From assembly GCA_046728175.1 (NCBI GenBank), contig JBKPEA010000005.1, positions 12,795 through 76,794 of the forward strand: DNA of 64,000 bases. The letters are read 5' to 3'. The notes below the pieces were generated by a model. It had not been told where the DNA came from and did not search any database. It saw nothing but the letters and a program-made list of their open reading frames with translations. Position numbers and translations under genes: made by a program. The DNA is from Thermodesulfobacteriota bacterium (GTDB lineage: Bacteria > Desulfobacterota > Binatia > Binatales > Binataceae). Every line of letters starts with the position of its first letter. Positions within the stretch are counted from its first letter, which is position 1. Shown piece after piece: positions 26 through 12,947 of the stretch.

Positions 26-1261
26 ATGGCAAAACCCGCGCCGGTTTATATCCTGGGAGGAGCGCAGACCGACTTCGCCCGCAATTGGTCCAAGGAAGGC
101 AAGCACTTCGTGGCCATGATGCGCGAGGCGGTCCTGGGCGCGCTGGAAGCTCAAAAGATCGAGCCCAAGGAAATCCAGACCGCTCACGTGGGCAACTTTG
201 CCGCCGAGCTGTATGCCAAGCAGGGGCATGTCGGTGCATTCTTCGTGGAAATCGATCCGGCGTTCAGCGGGTTACCGACCTCGCGCCATGAGGCTGCGTG
301 TGCATCAGGCTCGATCGCGATTCTCGCCGCCTCCGCCGAGATCGAGGCCGGTCGGTACGATCTCGCCTGCGTCACCGGCGTCGAGCAGATGAAAACCGTC
401 GATTCCACGACCGGCGGCGACTACCTGGGAACCGCGGCATGGTACGAGCGCGAAGCGAAGGGCATCGAGTTTCCATTTCCCAAGCTGTTCGGCCGCCTGG
501 GCGACGAGTATGACAAGCGCTTCGGGCTCAAGGACGAACATCTCGCGCACATTTCGGCGGTGAACTATTCGAACGCCAAACGCAATCCCAACGCGCAGAC
601 CCGCAACTGGTTCATGAGCGAGAGCCATGCCCAGCAGCAATCCAAGTTCAATACCGTCATCGGCGGACGGATCAAGGTTAGCGATTGTTCGCAGGTGACG
701 GATGGCGGCGTCGCATTGTTTCTCGCCTCGGAAAAGTTCGCCAGCCAGTGGGCCAAACGCAACAACCAGAGCCTGGGCAATATTCCCAGGATTCTCGGCT
801 GGGGACATCACACCGCTCCCCTCGAATTCGATGCCAAGGTTGCCGAGAGCAAGGACGATCCATACGTGCTCCCGCATACCAGGCAGGCGATTCTCGATGC
901 GTTGCGGCGCGCGGGCGTCGCTGGCGTGGAACAGCTCTCGGGAATTGAAACCCACGATTGCTTCACGACCTCGGAATACATGGCGATCGATCATTTCGGG
1001 CTGACCAGGCCTGGCGAATCGTGGAAGGCGGTCGAGGGTGGCGTGATCGAGCTGGGAGGGAAGTGCCCTATCAATCCGTCGGGTGGACTGATCGGTGCAG
1101 GTCATCCGGTGGGAGCGACGGGCGTACGCCAGATGTTGGATTGCTGGCGACAGATCACGCAAAGCGCTGGTGAGTATCAGGTCGAAGACGCGAAGACCTT
1201 CGCGATGCTGAACATCGGTGGCAGCGGCACGACCAGCTGCGTGTTCGTAGTCGGCAAGTAA
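26..1261 (+). CDS. Thiolase family protein (acetyl-CoA C-acyltransferase / SCP-x-like thiolase)
   Basis: 411-aa ORF; thiolase-like N-terminus (YILGGAQTDFARN), active-site Cys context (ACASGS), C-terminal GHPVGATGVRQ thiolase motif. Confidence 0.85.
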   Translation: MAKPAPVYILGGAQTDFARNWSKEGKHFVAMMREAVLGALEAQKIEPKEIQTAHVGNFAAELYAKQGHVGAFFVEIDPAFSGLPTSRHEAACASGSIAILAASAEIEAGRYDLACVTGVEQMKTVDSTTGGDYLGTAAWYEREAKGIEFPFPKLFGRLGDEYDKRFGLKDEHLAHISAVNYSNAKRNPNAQTRNWFMSESHAQQQSKFNTVIGGRIKVSDCSQVTDGGVALFLASEKFASQWAKRNNQSLGNIPRILGWGHHTAPLEFDAKVAESKDDPYVLPHTRQAILDALRRAGVAGVEQLSGIETHDCFTTSEYMAIDHFGLTRPGESWKAVEGGVIELGGKCPINPSGGLIGAGHPVGATGVRQMLDCWRQITQSAGEYQVEDAKTFAMLNIGGSGTTSCVFVVGK

Positions 1262-1285
1262 GCCAAGAGAACCGGAGAAAGCGAA

Positions 1286-1326
1286 GCGGTGGCTCGGGAA
1301 AACCAGTCGCCGTTTCTTTTTCAAGC
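1286..1326 (+). terminator. Putative rho-independent terminator after thiolase gene
   Basis: Imperfect GC hairpin (cggtggct...agtcgccg, two G-U pairs) followed by TTTCTTTTTC; convergent gene arrangement. Confidence 0.3.
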
Positions 1327-1485
1327 TGGAACATCGGTTCTGAGCGCGTGCGGTTGCACGGTCGCGCGAACCCGGGATCTGCCATCCCGCCAACCGGCGA
1401 CCTAGGGTGCCGCCAACCAAACTAAGGTAAAAGGCCCGGCAGCATTTAAATCGCGTAGACCCGCGGACCAACGAGCGAGGTCATT

Positions 1486-2190
1486 CTATTTCGAAGAGTG
1501 CGAGAGGCGCATCGCCAACAGCATCGGCCAGTTGAGGTAGCGCCCGGCGCGCGGAAGGGTAGCGGCGATTTCCGAGGTCATCGCCCGCTCGACCATCTCG
1601 TCGAAGACCAGGCCGGTTCGCCTTGCCGCCATCACGAAATCGGAAATCCTATACTCGCGTCCGGCCGGATACACCTTGGTTCCGGTCACAGGATCGTTAA
1701 AGCGCGCCCGCACGCCCCCAAGGTTCATCGCGGGGTGGAGCGTCGTCACGATGACGAAGCCGCCGCGGCGGCAGATTCTGTCGAGTTCCGCCAGATACGG
1801 CTCTAGGGCGGGAACGTGCTCGGCAACCAGCCCGGAAATGACTCGATCGAAGGACGAGCCCGGGAGCGGCAACCGCAAGCAATCGGCGCAGAGGAAAGCG
1901 ATCCGATCGGCGTTCGGTTTGGCGCGCGCGCGTTCTATCATTCCAAGGGAAAAGTCCAGACCGACCACTCGTGCACCCGCGCTCGCAAAGCGCAGCGCGT
2001 GGCGGCCGGTTCCCGTACCAACGTCCGCAATCGTGAGCCCGCGCACCTCTCCCATCATCCGGATGACTTCGGGCTCTTCCAGCGCGACGAGCGGATTGCC
2101 GTCGCTGTCGTACACCTCCGACCAGCGGTCGTAGCCCTGGCGCGTGGGGACAACGATCTCCGGGACATCGGAAGGCATGTTGCCGATCAT
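1486..2190 (-). CDS. Class I SAM-dependent methyltransferase
   Basis: VGTGTGRHALRFA motif I, LDFS motif; start chosen at ATG 2190 preceded by GGTGGAG RBS (ORF track extends to 2268). Confidence 0.8.
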   Translation of the reverse strand: MIGNMPSDVPEIVVPTRQGYDRWSEVYDSDGNPLVALEEPEVIRMMGEVRGLTIADVGTGTGRHALRFASAGARVVGLDFSLGMIERARAKPNADRIAFLCADCLRLPLPGSSFDRVISGLVAEHVPALEPYLAELDRICRRGGFVIVTTLHPAMNLGGVRARFNDPVTGTKVYPAGREYRISDFVMAARRTGLVFDEMVERAMTSEIAATLPRAGRYLNWPMLLAMRLSHSSK

Positions 2191-2261
2191 ACTCCACCTG
2201 AGCGGCGAGCAAAGGTGACGCGTCTGCTGCCTCGGTGAGACGGTTGGCTTACGATGGCGCG

Positions 2262-3164
2262 ATGGCAAGGCGACTCGCGGTTACTCTGGTCGATGTGTTC
2301 AGTTCGCGTCCGTTAAGCGGAAATCAGCTTGCGGTGTTTCATGATGCCGGCAGGCTTACGGCCGCCCAGATGCAGTCGCTCGCCCGCGAGATGAACTTCA
2401 GCGAGTCAACTTTCGTGATTCCCGCGGCGCACCCCTCCGACCCCGTCCGAGTCCGCATCTTTACTCCGCGCCGGGAGATTCCGATGGCCGGACACCCTAC
2501 CGTTGGTACCGCTTGGGTGCTGGCATCGCGCGGGGAGCTGCGAATCGGAGCCGCTACCCTGCGCCTTGGGGTGGGCGACACCATGGTTACCGTCGAAGGG
2601 AAGGCGCGAAACCCGTCCTTTGTATGGATGTTCCACCGGCCGGCGGAGTTCGGCGAGCGGCGCAACGACCGCGATCGCATTGCCACCGGTCTCGGAATCG
2701 ATACCGACGACGTGCGCGGCGATTTACCAATCGAGGCCGTTTCCACCGGAAACCCGTTTCTGTTTGTTCCGCTCAGTTCCGTCGACGCGCTTAAGCGTTG
2801 CGTCTCAAGTCCGTCTGCCCTGCGCACGCTCTTCGAGGGCGCTCCAAGAATGCTGCCGGTGTACCTCTTTGTTTGCGAGAAATCACCGACGCGGTCGGTG
2901 CGCGCGCGAATGTTCGCGCCGCATACGGACGGAATCGCCGAAGACCCGGCGACCGGTAGCGCTGCCGCGCCACTGGGCGCATACCTGCGCGCTCACGGCG
3001 TTATCGGGTCCACCGCGCGCGCACGCTTTCGGGTAATTCAAGGAATCGAGATGGGCCGCCGCAGTGAAATAACCGTCGAAGTGCTCAACCGTGCCGGCGA
3101 CGGCCCGTCGATAAGAATCGGAGGACGCTGCACCATCGTCGGCCAGGGTCAAATGCGCCTCTAG
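2262..3164 (+). CDS. PhzF family phenazine-biosynthesis-like isomerase
   Basis: VFSSRPLSGNQLAVF N-terminus and overall PhzF/YddE-like sequence, ~300 aa. Confidence 0.8.
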   Translation: MARRLAVTLVDVFSSRPLSGNQLAVFHDAGRLTAAQMQSLAREMNFSESTFVIPAAHPSDPVRVRIFTPRREIPMAGHPTVGTAWVLASRGELRIGAATLRLGVGDTMVTVEGKARNPSFVWMFHRPAEFGERRNDRDRIATGLGIDTDDVRGDLPIEAVSTGNPFLFVPLSSVDALKRCVSSPSALRTLFEGAPRMLPVYLFVCEKSPTRSVRARMFAPHTDGIAEDPATGSAAAPLGAYLRAHGVIGSTARARFRVIQGIEMGRRSEITVEVLNRAGDGPSIRIGGRCTIVGQGQMRL

Positions 3165-3947: not shown

Positions 3948-5234
3948 GTGAATGGATGGCGTCATTGGGGGGCAACGTTGGCCGCCCTCTTTCTGTTTTC
4001 ATGCGCGGGCGGCGAAATTGCCGAGCAGCCCAGCTACATCACCAATCAGCAGGGCGTGCGTGTGGAGGAACTAGCAATGACCACACCGCGGGCCGACCAG
4101 TCCGCAGCTGCACTACAAGACGGTCGTGTGCTGATTGCGGGGGGTACCACTAACGCGAACGTCGGCGGAGTTACTTCCACCGCCGAGATCTACGATCCCA
4201 ACGCGAAATCGTTCACCGCAACCGGGTCCATGACCGTGCCGCGGCAAGGTGCAACCGCGACGCTCCTGAATGATGGACGGGTCTTGCTCGCGGGCGGCGT
4301 ACAAAACATTGGATTTCGTGCCGAGCTATCCAGCGCTGAATTGTACGATCCTGTCGCAGGCACCTTCACCGCGACCGGCTCTATGCAAACGCCGCGCGAG
4401 GGCCACACCGCAACCCTCCTACGCGACGGCCGAGTACTGGTAGCCGGAGGAAGTGACAACGGAGTTCACACCCTCGATTCGGCGGAGATCTATGATCCCC
4501 GCTCGGGTGCCTGGCATTTCGCCGGCCACATGACGGTGCCGCGCGTGGCGCATATCGCCGTGCTGGTCCGGAGCGGCCAGGTGCTGATCGCGGGCGGAGG
4601 CCGCGGCGACATGCCGGGCGGTTACATCGTCTACCAAACCGCGGAAACCTATAGTCCGGAGCTTAAGCAATTCAACCGGGTGCCTGCTCGTATGAACAGT
4701 GATCGAGTCGGCGCCGGGGCTCTGCTGCTCAACGATGGGCGCGCGCTGATCGTGGGCGGCAAAAGCGGCAAGGTCCTCACCTCCTTCGGGCCGGGCACGC
4801 TCAACCTCAACTCCATGGCGCCTTTGAACACGGCTGAAACTTACGACCCCAAGTCGAGCAGCTTTGTATCGACCGGAAACCTGCAGGCTCCCCACTATCT
4901 TCCGCGCCTGGTCAAACTGCAGGATGGCAAGGTCCTGGTTACCAGTGGCTGGAAGATTCAGGGGCCGGTGGTCGTGGGGATGGCCGACGCCGAGGTCTTT
5001 CTGCCCGGCACCAATGGTTTCAGCCAGGTTGCGCCGATGCATGTGGCGCGGCTGCAGAATTCCTCCACCCTGCTCCCGGACGGCGACGTTCTGGTCGCAG
5101 GCGGAGTGGACCGGAACAGCCTGGTTACGGCCTCGGTCGAGTTTTACGATTCGAGGGCGCATCGTTTCGTCGTGCGCGGCGCGGGTTCAACTCCGCCGGG
5201 GAATCAGCCAAGCTCGATGGGTACCACGGAATGA
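3948..5234 (+). CDS. Kelch-repeat (beta-propeller) lipoprotein
   Basis: Signal peptide with lipobox LFSCAGG; six or more repeats of DGRVL(I/L)AGG...AE(I/L)YDP Kelch/galactose-oxidase-like motif. Confidence 0.7.
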   Translation: MNGWRHWGATLAALFLFSCAGGEIAEQPSYITNQQGVRVEELAMTTPRADQSAAALQDGRVLIAGGTTNANVGGVTSTAEIYDPNAKSFTATGSMTVPRQGATATLLNDGRVLLAGGVQNIGFRAELSSAELYDPVAGTFTATGSMQTPREGHTATLLRDGRVLVAGGSDNGVHTLDSAEIYDPRSGAWHFAGHMTVPRVAHIAVLVRSGQVLIAGGGRGDMPGGYIVYQTAETYSPELKQFNRVPARMNSDRVGAGALLLNDGRALIVGGKSGKVLTSFGPGTLNLNSMAPLNTAETYDPKSSSFVSTGNLQAPHYLPRLVKLQDGKVLVTSGWKIQGPVVVGMADAEVFLPGTNGFSQVAPMHVARLQNSSTLLPDGDVLVAGGVDRNSLVTASVEFYDSRAHRFVVRGAGSTPPGNQPSSMGTTE

Positions 5235-6844
5235 GGCGCGGTATGAGCGAACCATCCAAGCAATTGCCAGATTTTTCGCTGAATGATCTGTCCGGAACCG
5301 CACACACCTTCCCTGCGGGCCGCGCCGCGATGCTCTGTTTCGTCAAGGAAGATTGTCCGACCTGCGCCATTGCGATGCCGCTGATCGAGGGGTTTCATCG
5401 CGCGTTCGGTTCCAAGGTCGCGGTGCTCGCCATCGGTCAGGACGCCACTGGAAATCGCGTGCTCGCCCAGCGCCATTCGCTCACCTGCCCGCTGCTCGAC
5501 GATTCCGCTCTGCGCGTGTCGTTCGCCTACGGCTTCGATACCGTCCCGATGACGTTTTTCGCCGATGGGGCCGGCAATCAACTGCAGAGCTTCGCGGGTT
5601 TTGTGCGAAGCGACTGGCGATCGCTGGCAAGCGAGCTTGCGCAAATGACAGGATTGCCCGAGCCCGCGATCGATTGGGCGACCCTGCCGGAGTGGCGCGC
5701 GGGATGCGGTTCCAAAGCGGTCGAACCCGGAATTGCTGAACGGCTTGAAGCCGAGGCGCGCGGCGATCGTATGCAGGCCCGCCGCATCGAGTTGGGCGAA
5801 GGCGAGGACGTGTTCGAATTCATGTTCGAGCGCGGTCTTACCGACGGACTGCCGGTCGTCCCACCCACGCCCGAGCGGGTGGCGTGGATGCTTACCGGCA
5901 CCCGGCGTGATCCACGCGACATCGTCGCGACCGTGGCACCGAATCTGGCGCCCCTGACCGTCGAAAAGGTTGCCGTCAACGCGGTAATGGCGGGATGCCG
6001 TCCCGCTTATCTGCCGGTGGTGATCGCCGCGCTGGAAGCGGTCTGCACCGATACCTTCAATATCCACGGCGTGATGGCCACCACCTGGGGCGCCACCCCG
6101 GTGATTATTGTCAATGGACCAATTCGCCGGCGGCTCGGCATGAACATGGGAATCATGGCGCTCGGCTATGGCAGTCGACCCAACGCCACCATCGGCCGCG
6201 CGGTGAAACTGGTGCTGCGCAATGTGGGCGGCTCGCGTCCTGGTGATATCGAGCGCTCCGCGCTTGGAGCGATCGGCAAATTCACCACCTGCTTCGCGGA
6301 ATGGGAAGAGCGCAGTCCCTGGGAGCCGCTGCACGTCGAGCGCGGCTTCCTGAAGGACGAAAGCGTGGTAACGGTCTTCGGACTGGAAGCGGGCTCGCGG
6401 CAGATCGCGGATCAAACCTCGCGCACCGCTCGCGCGCTGGTAGGCTCGCTCGGCCTGGGACTGGAAGCGTGTTGGCATCCGAAGCAGCACGGTTCCGGTG
6501 AGGTGCTGCTGGTGATTTCACCGGAGCACGCCGACACCATCGCCCGCGACGAATGGAGCAAAGCGCAGGTGCGCAATCGAATTCAGGAAATCACGGCGCG
6601 CCCGCTGCGAGAGCTGCTCCCGGACGCGGAGAGCGGCGAAGGCATGCCCCTGAAGGCCTTTGGCCTCAAGGACCCGACGCCCGAGCAGCTCGATCAGAGA
6701 ATTCCGAAGTTTCGCTCCGCCGCGAATATCAATATTATCGTGGCGGGTGGTGAAGGCGGGAAGTTCTCCGCCGTGTTCGCCGGATGGGTTTCCGGACCGA
6801 TGGGCTCATCCAGCGTGAGCCGCCGAATCGAGGAGCTGCCATGA
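5231..6844 (+). CDS. Thioredoxin-fold (CPTC) domain fused to ~390-aa uncharacterized domain; putative partner of downstream selenoprotein
   Basis: N-terminal redoxin-like region with CPTC CxxC motif; start ATG overlaps Kelch stop (ATGA); stop overlaps next gene start (ATGA at 6841-6844). Confidence 0.6.
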   Translation: MRRGMSEPSKQLPDFSLNDLSGTAHTFPAGRAAMLCFVKEDCPTCAIAMPLIEGFHRAFGSKVAVLAIGQDATGNRVLAQRHSLTCPLLDDSALRVSFAYGFDTVPMTFFADGAGNQLQSFAGFVRSDWRSLASELAQMTGLPEPAIDWATLPEWRAGCGSKAVEPGIAERLEAEARGDRMQARRIELGEGEDVFEFMFERGLTDGLPVVPPTPERVAWMLTGTRRDPRDIVATVAPNLAPLTVEKVAVNAVMAGCRPAYLPVVIAALEAVCTDTFNIHGVMATTWGATPVIIVNGPIRRRLGMNMGIMALGYGSRPNATIGRAVKLVLRNVGGSRPGDIERSALGAIGKFTTCFAEWEERSPWEPLHVERGFLKDESVVTVFGLEAGSRQIADQTSRTARALVGSLGLGLEACWHPKQHGSGEVLLVISPEHADTIARDEWSKAQVRNRIQEITARPLRELLPDAESGEGMPLKAFGLKDPTPEQLDQRIPKFRSAANINIIVAGGEGGKFSAVFAGWVSGPMGSSSVSRRIEELP

Positions 6845-7362
6845 AGCAGGTAATCGTCGATCCCACCGATGAGCGCGTGCCGATACGGCGCACGCTCACT
6901 GAACGCTCCGGGCAGATCAGAGGCCGGGTCGCGATGCTTGATATCGCCAAGCCGCGCGGCGACGTGCTGATGAATCGCTTGGCCGAGCATCTCGGTAAGC
7001 GGCTGCCCGCGGTAGAAATCAAACGCTACCGCAAACCGACCTTTACCAAGCCGGCGCCGGAAGATCTGCGCCGCCGCATCGCGGAGGAAAGCGACTTCGT
7101 CATCGAAGCGCTCGCCGATTGAGGGTCGTGCACGACGTGCAGTGTGCACGACTCCGTATGGTTCGAAGTTAATCGCAAGCCCGCGGTGATGATCGCTTCC
7201 GACGTATTTGTCGATGCCGCCGAAAAGCAAGCGGCTGCACTCGGACTGCCCGAAGTGCGGCGGGTTTTCGTGCCCCATCCGATTCAGGATGCAACCGACG
7301 ACGAAATGCGTGCCAAGGCCGACGCGATCGTCGAGCGGGTAATCGACGCGCTGAAGAAGTGA
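6841..7362 (+). CDS. UGSC-type selenoprotein (in-frame UGA=Sec at 7120-7122; UxxCxxC motif), 173 aa if read through
   Basis: ORF track shows 6784..7122 ending at TGA and 7144..7362 in the same frame; codons are GAT TGA GGG TCG TGC ACG ACG TGC = D-U-G-S-C-T-T-C; downstream VPHPIQD resembles the glycine reductase protein B C-terminal region; stable hairpin begins 1 nt after the UGA. Confidence 0.7.
7123..7154 (+). promoter_or_regulatory. Putative bacterial SECIS stem-loop immediately 3' of in-frame UGA
   Basis: GGGTCGTGCAC / GTGCACGACTC form a 9-11 bp perfect stem (7125-7133 pairs with 7144-7152) with a 10-nt apical loop 12-21 nt downstream of the UGA. Confidence 0.5.
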
Positions 7363-7446: not shown

Positions 7447-8278
7447 CCCGGCGGCGTTCTTCCTGATGGTTAACCCCACCAGCCCAGCGGTCGGGTACTA
7501 TCTGTTGTCGGTGGCAGACGGAGTCCGCTTTTGCGGAAGTTCAAGCGGCGTTCCTGAAACATCAGGTGCTGTTCTTCCGTGACCAGGAGTTAAATCGAGA
7601 TCGGCAAAGAGCATTTGCGCGGCGCTTCGCCACCCTGAACATCCATCCCTTCGATCAGCCGCTCAAGGATGAAGGCTATCCGGAATTCGTCGTGTTCCAG
7701 AGGGACCAGCAATACCCGTATGTCGCGCAGGCGCGGCACGCTGACTTGACATGCTTACCTGAGCCGCCGCTGGATTCGGTGCTGCGATGCGTGGTCGCGC
7801 GCCACCGCTCGGCGGCGATACGATGTGGGTGAGCATGTGTGCGGCTTACGAGGCGCTCCCGGACAAGATGCAGCACCTGCTCTCCGGGCTAATCGCAATT
7901 CACGATACCAGGCGAGTGTTCGGTCTGTCGGCGGATATCGTCGCGAGGAGATCAGCGACAGCGAGGGAGACAGGCTGCGCAGCATGTCCGCGGAGCATCC
8001 GATGGTTCGCACCCATCCTCAAAGCCGTCGCAAAGGGCTGTTCGTCAACTGGCACTTCACCGCCTCGATCAAGGCATGAAATCCGCGGAGAGTGCGGCGC
8101 TGCTGAACTTTCTTTATCGTCACATCGAACTGCCAGATTTCATTTGCCGCTTCCGATGGCAAAGGGACTCGGTGGCGATGTGGGCAATCGCTGCACCCGG
8201 CATCGCGCGGTCGGCGACAATTGCTCCGCGGAACGTCGCCTCGAGCGCGTGACAATCAACGGCGACAAGCCGTTCTAG
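7447..8278 (+). pseudogene. TauD/TfdA family Fe(II)/2-oxoglutarate dioxygenase, multiply frameshifted
   Basis: TauD-like segments spread over three frames: AEVQAAFLKHQVLFFRDQEL, WHTD-like HADLTCLPEPPLDSVLRCVVA, PPLGGDTMWVSMCAAYEALPDKMQ, EHPMVRTHPQSRRKGLFVNWHFT, CTRHRAVGDNCSAERRLERVTINGDKP; at least four frame changes. Confidence 0.7.
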
Positions 8279-8452
8279 TTTTGCTGCTAGGAATTTCGCG
8301 TCGCGCGCCATCCGTGCGGACTCCTCCGCTTCTCGGCATAATCACGACACGGTAGCCAGTAGAAGGAACCCGCGAAGCGGTGCTTGGAGGCGGCGAAACC
8401 GGGCGGATGCTATTATTCGACTGGGCGCTCAGCTCTCCTTGACTCTTTCGGA

Positions 8453-9505
8453 ATGGATCACTCGGTTCAACCACCCCCACGACGCATCGTTGTAAAAGAA
8501 GTCAATTGGCTCGGCGACCTGGTTATGAGCCTGCCCGCCTTGCGCGCGATTCGTCGTTCCTTTCCGGGTGTGCACATTTCCGTTCTGACCAAGAGTGAGT
8601 TGGCGAGCTTCTTCGATGGAGTGGAATGGCTAGACGAAGTAATTCCCTACTCGGTCCACCCCAGCATTCGAGGTCTTGGCGATCGACGCGCGGTAGTTAA
8701 CACGATCCGATCGCGCGGATTCGACTTGGCCGTCTTGTTTCCCAACAGCTTCGAATCCGCATTGTGGGTGCGGATGGCGCGAATTCCGCGCCGGGCCGGG
8801 TACATAAGCGACGGACGCGGCCTGATGCTTACGCACAAGCTCAAGCCGCCTCCGCAGGCCATAAATGATCACCAGGTTCACTACTGGCTCGCCATGGTGC
8901 GGGGCACAATCGGCGCATCAGGAAACCCACAGGATTTTGCTCTGACCGCCGACCCAAACCACTTGCAGGAGATGGGCGTGTGGCTCGATGCGCATCGCCG
9001 GCGTAGTGGTTCACCCTTGATTGCTATCGCCCCCGCAGCTTCGTTCGGACCCGCCAAGGAGTGGCCGACGAAGCATTTCGTCCAGCTCATCAATGACCTC
9101 GCCGAGCGTCACGCTGCCGAATGCGTGCTGGTAGGTGCGCCCAACGAGCGTCCGCAATGTGCATCGATCGCATCCGCCTCACGCCGCGGTGCGCTGATCG
9201 CCGCCGGAGAAACCAGCGTTGGCCAGCTGGTAGCGTTGCTCAAGTTGGCCGATGGGTTTGTCGGCAATGATTCAGGCGCGATGCACGTCGCGGCTGCGCT
9301 GGGACGGCCCACGGTAGGAATTTTCGGTTCTACAAACCCCGCGAGGACCGGGCCGCTGGGACCGAGAACCCGGGTTCTCTGGCAACATCTCATCTGCAGC
9401 CCCTGCCTCGCGCGCACCTGCCGCTTCGGGCACTACAACTGTCTCCGGGAAATTACTCCCGCGGACGCCCTCGACGCTTTGCTCGCGCTGGGCGCGATAC
9501 AATGA
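8453..9505 (+). CDS. Glycosyltransferase family 9 (LPS heptosyltransferase, WaaF/WaaC-like)
   Basis: RIVVKEVNWLGDLVMSLPALRAIRRSFP N-terminal GT9 motif, GNDSGAMHVAAALGRPTVGIFG C-terminal motif. Confidence 0.75.
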   Translation: MDHSVQPPPRRIVVKEVNWLGDLVMSLPALRAIRRSFPGVHISVLTKSELASFFDGVEWLDEVIPYSVHPSIRGLGDRRAVVNTIRSRGFDLAVLFPNSFESALWVRMARIPRRAGYISDGRGLMLTHKLKPPPQAINDHQVHYWLAMVRGTIGASGNPQDFALTADPNHLQEMGVWLDAHRRRSGSPLIAIAPAASFGPAKEWPTKHFVQLINDLAERHAAECVLVGAPNERPQCASIASASRRGALIAAGETSVGQLVALLKLADGFVGNDSGAMHVAAALGRPTVGIFGSTNPARTGPLGPRTRVLWQHLICSPCLARTCRFGHYNCLREITPADALDALLALGAIQ

Positions 9506-9564
9506 CCGGGTTTCTTGTGCCGCCACGTTGCAATATTCTGACAAGCTAACGTCCGGGTGAAGCC

Positions 9565-10584
9565 ATGAAACTCAAGGAACTCGCCGCTCGTTTGGAACTG
9601 GAACTGCGTGGCGACGGGGATACTGAGATTTTCGCCCCTGCGCCAATCGAAGCGGCCGGTCCTGGCATGATCACGTTCGTGGCCGCCGAGAAATTCGCAC
9701 CTGCCCTCGAGCGAACTTCGGCGGCGGCGGCCATTGTCGCGCGCGAATTCGTCGACCAGGCGCCGTGCCCGGCACTGATCAGCGCGAATCCTTACGTCGA
9801 CTTTGCGCGCACGGTTGGGATTTTTTTCCCACCGTATCGTCCTCGGCCGGGAATCGACCCGAGCGCGCAAATCGCGCCCGGTGTGAAGCTTGGCGAGAAC
9901 GCGTCGGTTGGACCGAACGCGGTAATCGGCGCAGGTACCACGCTGGGCCGCAACGCGGTGCTCCACGCCAATGCCACCATCTATCCAAACGTTCGCATCG
10001 GCGACGATTTCACCTGCCACAGCCAGGCGGTGGTTCGCGAAGGGTGCACGATCGGCAACCGGGTGACGATTCTCGATGGAGCTGTAATTGGTGCGGACGG
10101 GTTCGGCTTCGTAGAAGATCGTGGTGGCCTGGTTAAGATTCCCCAGGTCGGGACCGTGGTTCTCGAGGACGACGTCGAGATCGGCGCCAAGTCGACCGTC
10201 GACCGGGCAATGCTCGGTGCCACAGTTTTACACCGTGGCGTGAAACTCGACGACCAGGTCCATATCGGCCACAACTGCGAAGTCGGAGATTACACGCGGC
10301 TGTGCGCGCAGGTCGGCATCGGCGGCTCAACCAAGATCGGCAAATGGTGCCTGTTCGGCGGCCAGGCCGCCGCGCCCGATCACCTCACGATCGGGGATCG
10401 CGTGATGGTCGCGGCGCGGGGCGCACTGCATCGGGATACACCCGATGGCGCGATCATGGCGGGTTGCCCGGCCGTCGAGATCGGGGTTTGGCGCCGCTAT
10501 GTTGCGGGTTGGCCACGTCTGACGGAAATTCTGCGACGCCTGCGCGCGCTCGAAAAACAGCTGGAGGACAATGAGGACAGGTGA
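9565..10584 (+). CDS. lpxD: UDP-3-O-(3-hydroxyacyl)glucosamine N-acyltransferase
   Basis: LpxD-type N-terminus followed by left-handed beta-helix hexapeptide repeats; 339 aa. Confidence 0.85.
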   Translation: MKLKELAARLELELRGDGDTEIFAPAPIEAAGPGMITFVAAEKFAPALERTSAAAAIVAREFVDQAPCPALISANPYVDFARTVGIFFPPYRPRPGIDPSAQIAPGVKLGENASVGPNAVIGAGTTLGRNAVLHANATIYPNVRIGDDFTCHSQAVVREGCTIGNRVTILDGAVIGADGFGFVEDRGGLVKIPQVGTVVLEDDVEIGAKSTVDRAMLGATVLHRGVKLDDQVHIGHNCEVGDYTRLCAQVGIGGSTKIGKWCLFGGQAAAPDHLTIGDRVMVAARGALHRDTPDGAIMAGCPAVEIGVWRRYVAGWPRLTEILRRLRALEKQLEDNEDR

Positions 10585-10620
10585 GCTGGTAGCTCGCTCG
10601 CGAGCCGCTGGGGGACGAGG

Positions 10621-10827
10621 GTGAAACTGGTCGCACTCATAGGTCTGCTGGTTGTTGGCCTGGGGCTCAGCGGGTGTATCTGGCTGGCCATCCCCGGACT
10701 CGCCTACACCGGCTATCAATATGAAAAGACCGGCAAGCTACCGGGCATGCCGTCCACCTCGCAAGCCTCGTCCGGCAGCAAACCCCAAGCGTCCGCCCAA
10801 GCGACGCCTTCCGACAATATCGAATGA
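10621..10827 (+). CDS. Small lipoprotein (hypothetical)
   Basis: Signal peptide with lipobox LSGC; S/Q-rich tail; 68 aa. Confidence 0.4.
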   Translation: MKLVALIGLLVVGLGLSGCIWLAIPGLAYTGYQYEKTGKLPGMPSTSQASSGSKPQASAQATPSDNIE

Positions 10828-10857
10828 CGATAGCCCCAATCGCCAAGGAGCCTCACT

Positions 10858-12177
10858 TTGCCGACCAAAGATAACGTGCGTTTCGCGCCCGCGGACGGGA
10901 AGCTCGGTGTCCTGATTCCCGGACTCGGCGCAGTGAGCACGACCTTCATCGCGGGGGTCGAGGCGGTCAAGCGTGGTCTGGGATTGCCAATCGGCTCGTT
11001 GACCCAGCTCGCGACGGTGCGTCTGGGCAAGCGCACCGAAGGTCGCACACCCCTGATCAGGGACTTCGTCCCGCTCGCGTCGATAAACGATCTGGAATTC
11101 TGCGGTTGGGATATTTTTGAGGATAACGCGTACCAGTCAGCCCGCAATGCCGCAGTGCTGGATCCGGCCCTGATCGAAAAGGTGCGCGAGCCGCTCGAAA
11201 AAATTCACCCCATGGAGGCCGTGTTCGATCGCGAGTACGTACGCCGGATCAATGGTCCGAACGTGAAGGAAGGCCGCAACAAAATGGAAAAGGCCGAGAT
11301 GCTGATGGAAGACATCCGGCAATTCCAGGCGCGCACCGGCGTCAAGCGCATGGTGATGATTTGGTGCGGCTCCACCGAGGTGTTCCATACCCCATCGCAA
11401 GTGCATCAGTCCCTCAAGCGATTCGAGCACGGACTTCAAAAGAATGACCTGGAAATAGCGCCGAGCCAGATTTACGCATACGCGGCGCTCAAGATGGGAA
11501 TTCCATACGCCAACGGCGCACCCAACCTGACGACGGATACACCGGCGCTGCTCGAACTCGCGCGTGAGAAGAACGTCCCGATCTGCGGTAAGGATTTCAA
11601 AACCGGACAGACCTTTATAAAAACACTCATCGCGCCCGGACTGAAGGCACGAATGCTCGGGCTGTCGGGATGGTTCTCTACCAATATCCTTGGTAACCGC
11701 GACGGGGAGGTGCTGGACGACCCCGGATCGTTCAAATCAAAGGAGGAAACCAAGCTGTCGGTGCTCGATCAGATACTGCAACCGCGGTTGTACCCGCAGC
11801 TCTACGGCGATGTGTTTCACTCGGTGCGGATCAACTACTATCCGCCGCGCGGCGACGCCAAGGAAGGCTGGGACAACATCGATCTCTTCGGATGGCTCGG
11901 CTACCCGATGCAGATCAAGATCGACTTTTTGTGCCGCGATTCAATCCTCGCGGCGCCGCTGGTGCTCGACCTGGTACTGTTCCTGGACCTGGCCCGTCGC
12001 GCCGGCATGCACGGAATCCAGGAATGGCTCTCGTTCTTCTTCAAGGCTCCGATGCACGCACCGGGGCTCTACCCGGAACACGACATTTTTATTCAGCTCA
12101 TGAAGCTCAAGAACACGCTGCGCTGGATGCGCGGTGAGGATCTGATAACCCACCTGGGGCTCGAATATTACGACTAG
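10858..12177 (+). CDS. Inositol-3-phosphate synthase (myo-inositol-1-phosphate synthase)
   Basis: 439 aa; conserved GWDI, ANGAPN, SGWFSTNILGNRDGEVLDDP motifs of the bacterial/archaeal Ino1 family; TTG start. Confidence 0.85.
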   Translation: MPTKDNVRFAPADGKLGVLIPGLGAVSTTFIAGVEAVKRGLGLPIGSLTQLATVRLGKRTEGRTPLIRDFVPLASINDLEFCGWDIFEDNAYQSARNAAVLDPALIEKVREPLEKIHPMEAVFDREYVRRINGPNVKEGRNKMEKAEMLMEDIRQFQARTGVKRMVMIWCGSTEVFHTPSQVHQSLKRFEHGLQKNDLEIAPSQIYAYAALKMGIPYANGAPNLTTDTPALLELAREKNVPICGKDFKTGQTFIKTLIAPGLKARMLGLSGWFSTNILGNRDGEVLDDPGSFKSKEETKLSVLDQILQPRLYPQLYGDVFHSVRINYYPPRGDAKEGWDNIDLFGWLGYPMQIKIDFLCRDSILAAPLVLDLVLFLDLARRAGMHGIQEWLSFFFKAPMHAPGLYPEHDIFIQLMKLKNTLRWMRGEDLITHLGLEYYD

Positions 12178-12602: not shown

Positions 12603-12947
12603 ATGCACGTTCCACGGGAGGCGGTTCTACTGCGAATTTTCATTGGCGAAGAGGATCGGATTAAGGGCCGTCCGCTGTACGAAGCGATCGTCCTGAAAGC
12701 GCGCGAAGCCGGACTGGCCGGCGCGACGGTCCTGCGCGGCCCGATGAGCTTTGGCAAGAGCAGCACGCTGCACACCGCCAAGGTTCTGCGGCTCAGCGAG
12801 GACTTGCCGATCGTAATCGAGATTGTCGATACTGAGGAAAAGATCGACGCGTTCCTGCCGGTGCTCGACCCGATGATGGGCTCCGGACTGGTCACGCTTG
12901 AGCGCGTGCAGGTACTGCAGTACGGCGACAGCAACGGAAAGAACTGA
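12603..12947 (+). CDS. DUF190 (PII-like) domain protein
   Basis: LLRIFIGEEDRIKGRPLYEAIVLKAREAGLAGATVLRG; starts 3 nt after the crcB stop. Confidence 0.7.
   Translation: MHVPREAVLLRIFIGEEDRIKGRPLYEAIVLKAREAGLAGATVLRGPMSFGKSSTLHTAKVLRLSEDLPIVIEIVDTEEKIDAFLPVLDPMMGSGLVTLERVQVLQYGDSNGKN

Follow-up and report, generated by a model that had tools for sequence, protein, structure and literature searches.

A UGSC-family selenoprotein and its thioredoxin-fused partner form a conserved gene pair that may encode a thioredoxin-driven selenoenzyme

Introduction

What does a small selenoprotein do when it is encoded immediately behind a larger protein that carries a thioredoxin-like domain? This question is raised by a 64,000-nt stretch of DNA (the window) from a Thermodesulfobacteriota bacterium of the family Binataceae (GenBank assembly GCA_046728175.1, contig JBKPEA010000005.1, forward-strand positions 12,795 to 76,794). 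Three open reading frames (ORFs) follow one another on its forward strand: a Kelch-repeat lipoprotein gene (3948–5234), a gene for a protein of up to 537 aa that joins a thioredoxin (Trx)-like domain to a C-terminal domain of ~350 aa, here called Cdom (5231–6844), and a gene for a UGSC-family selenoprotein (6841–7362). A preliminary description made from the letters alone had proposed these three as one translationally coupled operon, and the ORF listing confirms all of them.

UGSC is a published selenoprotein family to which no function has been assigned (PMC1976440, PMC9312934, PMC13188914), a 2026 review included (PMC13188914). Since 2005–2008 it has been listed among the most abundant prokaryotic selenoproteins of aquatic metagenomes. 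The Global Ocean Sampling (GOS) study, with 255 selenocysteine (Sec) sequences, proposed a Trx-like fold for it, and in 2008 reported a "UGSC/Unknown_1" fusion with a conserved domain (PMC2398784). Here we ask which of the three genes belong together and what kind of enzyme, if any, they may encode.

Results

UGSC and Cdom are linked in both directions of search

Cdom loci were scanned with one genome per species, which confirmed at least 596 stretches as relatives; counts over 80 loci refer to the best 80 of these. In 74 of the 80, a UGSC gene lies directly downstream of Cdom on the same strand, usually 3–150 nt away, and clustering of ORFs recovered one for the N-terminal half of UGSC in 77. 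These loci (L numbers below; proteins bear P numbers) span Binatia, Gammaproteobacteria, Dehalococcoidia, Acidobacteriota (Vicinamibacteria), Actinomycetota (Acidimicrobiia), Alpha- and Betaproteobacteria, and Myxococcota. For the reverse test, metagenome contigs were scanned with a DNA pattern for A-D-UGA-G-S-C-T-[ST]-C alone. True UGSC genes accounted for 119 of the 120 matches, and among the 94 informative loci, that is, those with at least 300 nt of upstream sequence, Cdom was found immediately upstream in 85, ~2.1 kb away in two and not at all in seven. Clustering of the neighbouring ORFs in the 80 genome loci yielded no third universally conserved partner gene.

Both domains also occur within single polypeptides. 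The Pfam model of UGSC (PF24696) is carried by 22 of 92 Cdom family representatives, in the orders UGSC-Cdom and Cdom-UGSC, with many of these fusions cut at the UGA by gene callers. The model of a natural UGSC-Cdom fusion (P0243; mean predicted local distance difference test score, pLDDT, 91.9; predicted template modelling score, pTM, 0.92) is compact and indicates that the two domains would pack in a fixed two-domain arrangement. The conserved unit is thus the pair formed by a protein with a Trx-like CxTC domain and the ~350-aa Cdom, followed by UGSC. The preliminary description had suspected a thiol/selenol redox module of the Trx-fusion protein and the selenoprotein, to be given up if Cdom turned out to be a known enzyme and UGSC genes showed no linkage to it. 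Instead, Cdom is uncharacterised and the linkage is tight, and conserved linkage together with fusions in both orders supports such a module.

The UGA of the third gene is read through at the level of homology and RNA structure

The third gene (6841–7362, forward strand; 173 aa with U94) contains an in-frame TGA at 7120–7122 which, decoded as Sec, gives ...ALAD-U-GSCTTCSVHD..., with the redox motif U94-G-S-C97-T-T-C100 encoded at 7120–7140. Its product scores above the curated cutoffs of both family hidden Markov models, Pfam PF24696 (1.2e-45; 156.2 bits, cutoff 25) and NCBIfam NF041046 (157.9 bits, cutoff 125), and with its UGA-encoded U-G-S-C it is a full member of the UGSC family. Homology extends across the UGA in 74 genome loci and 119 metagenome loci. 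In the former, which were located via the neighbouring Cdom gene, the codon at the Sec position is TGA in 72 of 74; a Lysobacter metagenome-assembled genome (MAG; L068) has TGC, a Cys form, and a Blastococcus MAG (L046) has TAG, be it through an error, pseudogene formation or some other cause.

Just behind the UGA, a hairpin resembling a selenocysteine insertion sequence (SECIS) spans 7123–7154 on the forward strand (conserved core 7136–7150, A-G-U-G-U loop) and folds with a minimum free energy of −22.3 kcal/mol in the window sequence. With positions counted from the U of UGA, the core pairs C17-G31 to C21-G27 are formed in 99–100% of 181 unique homologue sequences, with G23-U24 in the loop. 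The Cys at codon +6 after the UGA is TGC in 180 of the 181 and the Ser at codon +7 is AGT in 163 and in no case TCN; six codons, by contrast, encode the Ser at codon +2. Because codon choice is frozen at synonymous sites inside the hairpin, it is under RNA-level constraint, as expected of a bacterial SECIS; it matched no Rfam family, and Rfam and tRNA scans of the window gave no matches. The UGA at 7120 is, on these sequence grounds, most probably a real Sec codon. The alternative of a true stop between two small ORFs was rejected.

In the fusion model UGSC adopts a flavodoxin-like three-layer alpha/beta fold, rather than the Trx-like fold suggested in the GOS paper, and the Sec motif follows strand 3 and sits at the start of helix 3. 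A PDB sequence search with UGSC returned noise only, and the protein has no signal peptide. Searching protein databases with UGSC yielded just 61 matches, and since these were few and mostly ended at the UGA, the family was rebuilt from DNA instead of protein records. Gene callers either split UGSC into ORFs of 92–93 and 57–72 aa, as in three Binataceae relatives (L201–L203), or end it at the UGA, so that protein databases badly under-represent the family; in some entries the Sec position reads W or G (P0273 and P0271, from the set P0271–P0320). A Cys-type UGSC on a plasmid of Arthrobacter sp. ERGS1:01 (L206, 6997–7812) bears a C-terminal NifU-like domain (PF01106, 27.2 bits, cutoff 27).

The partner protein combines an accessory Trx-like domain with an uncharacterised domain

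The second gene (forward strand) encodes an N-terminal Trx-like domain of the AhpC/TSA type (5231–5650), a flexible linker (5651–5785) and Cdom (5786–6841), the latter presumed to be a substrate-binding or catalytic subunit. The CPTC-bearing thioredoxin fold claimed earlier for the N-terminus was confirmed: residues 10–115 match Pfam AhpC/TSA (PF00578; 31.9 bits, cutoff 26), a PDB sequence search retrieved the thioredoxin-family chains 3kcm and 3hdc, and C42-P-T-C45 is encoded at 5354–5365. Equally in line with that description, which had left the C-terminal ~390 aa outside known families, profile searches gave no characterised family for this part; residues ~141–537 matched nothing in Pfam and NCBIfam (both also at E<=10) or in PDB sequences.

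The Trx-Cdom protein has 7593 homologues, and the best among the matches listed are full-length. Their source names are "TlpA family protein disulfide reductase", "hypothetical" and "peroxiredoxin". A C-x-T-C motif is present in 69 of the 72 homologues that have the N-terminal extension (CPTC in 46). Over 95 Trx-Cdom proteins, C42, C45, C159, C256 and C354 are each 96–99% conserved (97–98% for the CPTC pair, 99% for C159). The linker, with a low pLDDT of 56–78 over model residues 1–40, holds C159 within an invariant G158-C159-G160 (codons 5702–5710, Cys codon 5705–5707), which could be a swinging-arm thiol. Within Cdom, C256 sits in a VMAG-C256 motif (codon 5996–5998) and C354 in a T-x-C354 motif (codon 6290–6292), next to further near-invariant motifs: TDGLPVVPPT, NGP and G-x-R316-x-N318-ATIG-R323-A.

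With TlpA, ResA and AhpC/TSA reductases this protein shares the fold and the CxxC of its N-terminal 140 aa, but it differs in having neither signal peptide nor membrane anchor and in that 70% of the 537-aa chain is the unrelated Cdom. Its N-terminus (MSEPSKQLPDF...) includes no hydrophobic segment or signal peptide, and it scores far below family cutoffs against ResA (NF002854; 31.8 bits, cutoff 170) and MauD (22.9, cutoff 188.6). These low scores and the lack of a signal peptide or anchor speak against an extracytoplasmic oxidoreductase of the TlpA/ResA type. With Cdom making up most of the chain, the NCBI/JGI name TlpA reductase (or peroxiredoxin) covers an accessory domain only. Since UGSC has no signal peptide either, the pair is presumably cytoplasmic, and the envelope association considered at first was not borne out.

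The Cdom family itself comprises 5299 clusters at 50% identity (E<=1e-3). Tandem Cdom-Cdom proteins of ~710 aa exist, and P0136, P0148, P0160, P0179 and P0218 are extra or tandem Cdom proteins. Additional stand-alone Cdom paralogues lie beside a single UGSC gene in L028 (11861–13959), L078 (11528–12535) and L209 (4348–5262 and 6001–6930), and one UGSC may serve several Cdom variants. Three Binatia loci (L069, L071, L072) hold a second type of module, in which a Trx-less stand-alone Cdom precedes a UGSC variant that reads D-U-G-A-C-I-S-C.

The Kelch lipoprotein gene is a lineage-specific neighbour

Does the first gene (3948–5234, forward strand, 428 aa), which is adjacent and probably co-transcribed, belong to the same system? 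Its product is a Kelch-repeat beta-propeller protein (Kelch_6 5e-31, Kelch_1 2e-26, with Kelch_4 and Kelch_3 also above cutoffs) with a lipobox, LFSC/AGG, whose Cys is conserved among orthologues; against the radical copper oxidase GlxA (NF052501) it reaches 90.5 bits at a cutoff of 800, below equivalog level. A three-gene envelope-associated system of Kelch lipoprotein, Trx-fusion protein and UGSC would accord with the tight packing of the genes in the window and with the identical gene order in the Binataceae loci L001, L201 and L203, the only ones in which the Kelch gene precedes the pair. It is, though, missing from a fourth Binataceae locus (L202, 70% identical), where the gene directly upstream of the pair encodes a thiolase, and from the other 79 of the best 80 genome loci. 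Moreover, the Kelch protein is exported, as its conserved lipobox attests, while the other two proteins lack signal peptides, and both Sec insertion and thioredoxin reduction are cytoplasmic. This patchy distribution and the mismatch of compartments essentially refute an envelope system that includes the Kelch protein, to which we give hardly any credence. The three-gene operon is consequently a local arrangement and the Kelch gene a lineage-specific neighbour, not a component of the module; the conserved unit consists of the last two genes.

The claimed gene overlaps fared unequally. The ATGA that joins the second and third genes is present at 6841–6844. An ATGA also exists at 5231–5234, where the Kelch stop would overlap the start of the 537-aa frame, but the real start may be the ATG at 5243, since a GAGG Shine-Dalgarno sequence precedes this codon by 6 nt and the resulting 533-aa product begins MSEPS, like the nearest homologues (95% identical). 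The first junction is then possibly an 8-nt gap instead of a 4-nt overlap; relatives have gaps of 10–24 nt. A promoter and terminator scan was uninformative.

Around the cluster, the window holds a Binataceae synteny block (26–3164 and 8384–12177) of thiolase-like, (methyltransferase), PhzF-like, the pair, heptosyltransferase, LpxD and inositol-1-phosphate synthase genes. It is common in part or whole to L201–L203, and none of its genes is linked to the pair outside Binataceae. Between UGSC and the heptosyltransferase gene, remnants of a TauD/TfdA-family dioxygenase in three reading frames (7470–8266) represent a decayed pseudogene, at a site that is empty in L202 and L203 and occupied by a reverse-strand Kelch gene in L201.

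Thioredoxin-system genes recur beside the pair

Cdom homologues encoded on plasmids of cultured organisms are all annotated as "hypothetical" and have no fused Trx domain. The gene order is trxB-trxA-Cdom-UGSC in Arthrobacter sp. ERGS1:01, trxB-(2 genes)-Cdom-UGSC in Variovorax sp. SRS16, Cdom-UGSC-trxB in Roseovarius sp. THAF8, and UGSC-Cdom followed by a pyridine nucleotide-disulfide oxidoreductase gene (Pyr_redox_2 flavoprotein) in Haloterrigena turkmenica. In a Chloroflexota locus whose Cdom is Trx-fused (L024), a gene resembling that of thioredoxin reductase (TrxR) follows UGSC. These five independent lineages point to an electron path from NAD(P)H via TrxR and Trx, free or fused, to Cdom/UGSC. 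In the 470-aa protein P0151, the catalytic domain of ferredoxin-thioredoxin reductase (FTR; PF02943, CPC..CPC..CHC) replaces the Trx domain before Cdom.

Stoichiometric coupling to thioredoxin typifies reductases in which every turnover oxidises the catalytic Cys or Sec, among them glycine reductase, methionine sulfoxide reductases, PAPS reductase and arsenate reductase. Catalytic domains fused to their own reductant are also familiar from the Trx-MsrA-MsrB protein PilB and from Prx-Grx hybrids. As in these hybrids, an oxidised Cys or Sec of the catalytic domain would here be recycled by an attached Trx-like CxxC domain. What sets the present pair apart is a catalytic part divided between two polypeptides, of which one is a selenoprotein, and a catalytic domain outside all characterised families.

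These Trx partners bear directly on a different reading of the Sec/Cys residues, in which they would bind an Fe-S cluster or another metal centre where Cdom and UGSC meet. On this view the pair would act non-reductively, as a hydro-lyase or isomerase in organic-acid catabolism, and thioredoxin would merely protect or activate it. The ferredoxin-like spacing of U-x-x-C-x-x-C, the His-Asp that follows it, the five conserved Cys, weak fold hints and the NifU-like tail of the Arthrobacter UGSC all lend themselves to this interpretation, as do neighbouring genes for CoA-transferase III, CoA ester lyase, short-chain dehydrogenase/reductase (SDR) enzymes and TRAP/TTT transporters. Against it, many Cys-type or fused forms have Trp in place of the third Cys or have lost this residue (CGSCTAW, CGNCTSW, CGASSSW), and the recurrent partners make up complete electron-supply chains (Trx, TrxR, FTR-like), typical of stoichiometric reductases. 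We thus deem a metal centre rather improbable.

Neighbouring genes point to organic-acid or CoA-ester catabolism

CoA-transferase III is the most frequent neighbour in MAG loci (17 of 80); acyl-CoA dehydrogenase, SDR, TauD, thiolase and MutY genes occur in fewer, and the positions of recurrent neighbours are inconsistent or confined to one lineage. In cultured hosts the pair is found among LysR regulators, TRAP/TTT transporters, CaiB/BaiF CoA-transferases, CoA ester lyase, SDRs and DUF6282, a context that points to organic-acid or CoA-ester catabolism. The amidohydrolase-like DUF6282 gene recurs beside Cdom in haloarchaeal plasmids of Natrinema and Haladaptatus (L205, 7029–7880; L212, 754–1650), and in Haladaptatus, Cdom is preceded by genes for CoA transferase and CoA ester lyase and lacks a UGSC neighbour.

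A distinct kind of neighbour would suit a role of the pair in selenium metabolism itself, for example in trafficking or delivery, with no organic substrate. In nine of the 80 loci, selA and/or selB stand immediately beside the pair, upstream in L018, L019, L020, L049, L056 and L073 and downstream in L032, L035 and L051. They belong to at least three lineages (Alphaproteobacteria, Actinomycetota, Beta/Gammaproteobacteria), selB is directly adjacent in most, and the identity of selA/selB was confirmed with Pfam for the representative loci L020 and L073. Plasmid pFER4 of Paracoccus ferrooxidans likewise has selB, cysteine desulfurase, TusA and DsrE genes near the pair. Yet sel genes commonly adjoin the main selenoprotein gene of a genome, and their placement suggests that UGSC is this protein in the sel-adjacent genomes. 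Haloarchaeal and other plasmid copies, furthermore, are Cys-type UGSC in catabolic clusters whose examined regions showed no sel genes, and neither selA nor selB lies within the window. A role in selenium handling is accordingly very unlikely in our estimate. Indeed, searches of the 64 kb for selA, selB, selD, tRNA-Sec, trxB or a second module copy found none.

Kinship with PrdB/GrdB-type reductases is suggestive and statistically unproven

The preliminary description had likened the pair to a split GrdB/PrdB-type system. If it were a true distant relative, UGSC would be a minimal PrdB and Cdom would take the part of PrdA/GrdE, possibly self-cleaving at G255-C256 to a pyruvoyl group, with reductive C-N/C-X cleavage through a selenoether and a Se-S intermediate. 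The systems do resemble each other: each joins a larger partner to a small selenoprotein subunit in which U-G-[ST]-C follows a beta-strand, and each draws on dithiol or thioredoxin reducing power, supplied here by adjacent trxB/trxA or a fused Trx domain. The Pfam UGSC model weakly matches a PrdB sequence across the Sec (E 0.0044), and an hhalign comparison of 174 UGSC with 115 real PrdB sequences aligned Sec with Sec, the short motifs D[IV]xK..F..DRLxEL, U-G-[ST]-C, E..GIP and P.P being co-linear over 130 columns. That comparison nevertheless reached a probability of only 17.9% (E 1.3e-3 for a single comparison), which leaves homology statistically unproven. Real PrdB sequences do match Pfam GRDB (PF07355), whereas this model matched neither UGSC nor Cdom even at E<=10.

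Cdom against PrdB gave an hhalign probability of 0.5%, and Cdom matches no Pfam family and so does not match Gly_reductase, the family of PrdA/GrdE; it is unrelated to these proteins and without known fold relative. In the model, C256 lies in a turn between two helices, atypical for a self-cleavage loop, and a PDB search with PrdB found no solved PrdB structure for a fold comparison. In gene context, the trxB-trxA-Cdom-UGSC order of Arthrobacter parallels the trxB-trxA carried by clostridial grd operons, and the cases in which extra Cdom paralogues accompany a single UGSC gene are reminiscent of glycine, sarcosine and betaine reductase, with their protein B variants for different substrates. 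Those neighbourhoods of the pair that were annotated or clustered showed no grd or prd genes, GrdA, GrdC and GrdD genes of glycine reductase were not seen near it either, and its hosts are mostly aerobic heterotrophs and haloarchaea, not amino-acid-fermenting anaerobes. On balance, we regard a true distant kinship with this group as plausible if unlikely, and as a little likelier than a metal centre.

Discussion

Taken together, the data favour a cytoplasmic, thioredoxin-driven, two-subunit selenoenzyme as the product of the genes at 5231–6844 and 6841–7362, a reading that we hold to be probable, with considerable room for doubt. We infer the direction of electron flow, the residue contacts and the chemistry of this enzyme as follows. 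The UGA at 7120 would be read as Sec with the help of the downstream SECIS hairpin, giving a small flavodoxin-fold UGSC with U94-x-x-C97-x-x-C100 at a helix start, which would dock rigidly on the ~350-aa Cdom of the upstream protein. Cdom would supply the substrate site through its conserved residues C256 and C354 and a motif rich in Arg and Asn, which hints at an anionic, possibly carboxylate-type substrate. The selenol of Sec94 would act as nucleophile or reductant on the bound substrate and would finish with a Se-S (or S-S) bond that ties it to C97 or a Cys of Cdom. This bond would be re-reduced through thiol-disulfide exchange by the fused Trx-like domain (C42-P-T-C45), possibly with participation of the invariant linker C159, and the Trx-like domain in turn by cellular thioredoxin reductase and NADPH.

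Several points weigh against this proposal. That Sec would come close to C256/C354 or to the CPTC motif is presumed, and the five conserved Cys and the spacing of U-x-x-C-x-x-C would suit metal or cluster binding too. For some Cdom genes no UGSC gene is adjacent (L004, L021, L022, L080 and Haladaptatus), and because certain fused UGSC domains have lost the U/CxxC motif (P0237, P0215), Cdom may have a chemistry of its own. No thioredoxin reductase gene was found beside the pair in this window. Finally, the literature still lists the function of UGSC as unknown (PMC1976440, PMC13188914).

Part of the arrangement was on record before. The earlier claim that it is not a described system holds for the two-gene unit and its thioredoxin link, neither of which we found described, but not for the UGSC family or for the 2008 fusion with Unknown_1. 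The fusions found here fit the latter, in which Unknown_1 may be Cdom. As published, the UGSC family comes with no function, partner operon or thioredoxin link. A near-obligate Cdom-UGSC unit, a partner family with neither a database model nor a solved relative, and systematic thioredoxin wiring were found neither in the UGSC literature searched nor in Pfam or NCBIfam entries. Most likely, Cdom-UGSC is a kind of thioredoxin-dependent Sec/Cys reductase with a catalytic subunit of a new family, of which the window copy is a typical member apart from its Kelch neighbour.

For annotation, the names "TlpA family disulfide reductase" and "peroxiredoxin" should be taken to denote an accessory domain only, and UGSC genes are routinely split into two ORFs. 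For the family, UGSC is almost always accompanied by one specific partner domain that databases do not model, which turns an orphan selenoprotein into a defined, testable two-subunit enzyme. Cultured hosts are at hand for experiments (Arthrobacter, Roseovarius, Variovorax, Paracoccus and haloarchaea), some with easily expressed Cys-type versions. As a tentative extension, which we put forward with less than even confidence, Cdom and UGSC might constitute an unrecognised class of thioredoxin-dependent selenoenzymes in aerobic bacteria and haloarchaea, with a catalytic fold that has no solved relative and that would carry out a PrdB/GrdB-style cleavage or another reduction of an organic-acid or CoA-ester type substrate. 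If true, such an activity would explain why UGSC ranks among the most abundant selenoproteins in ocean and freshwater metagenomes.

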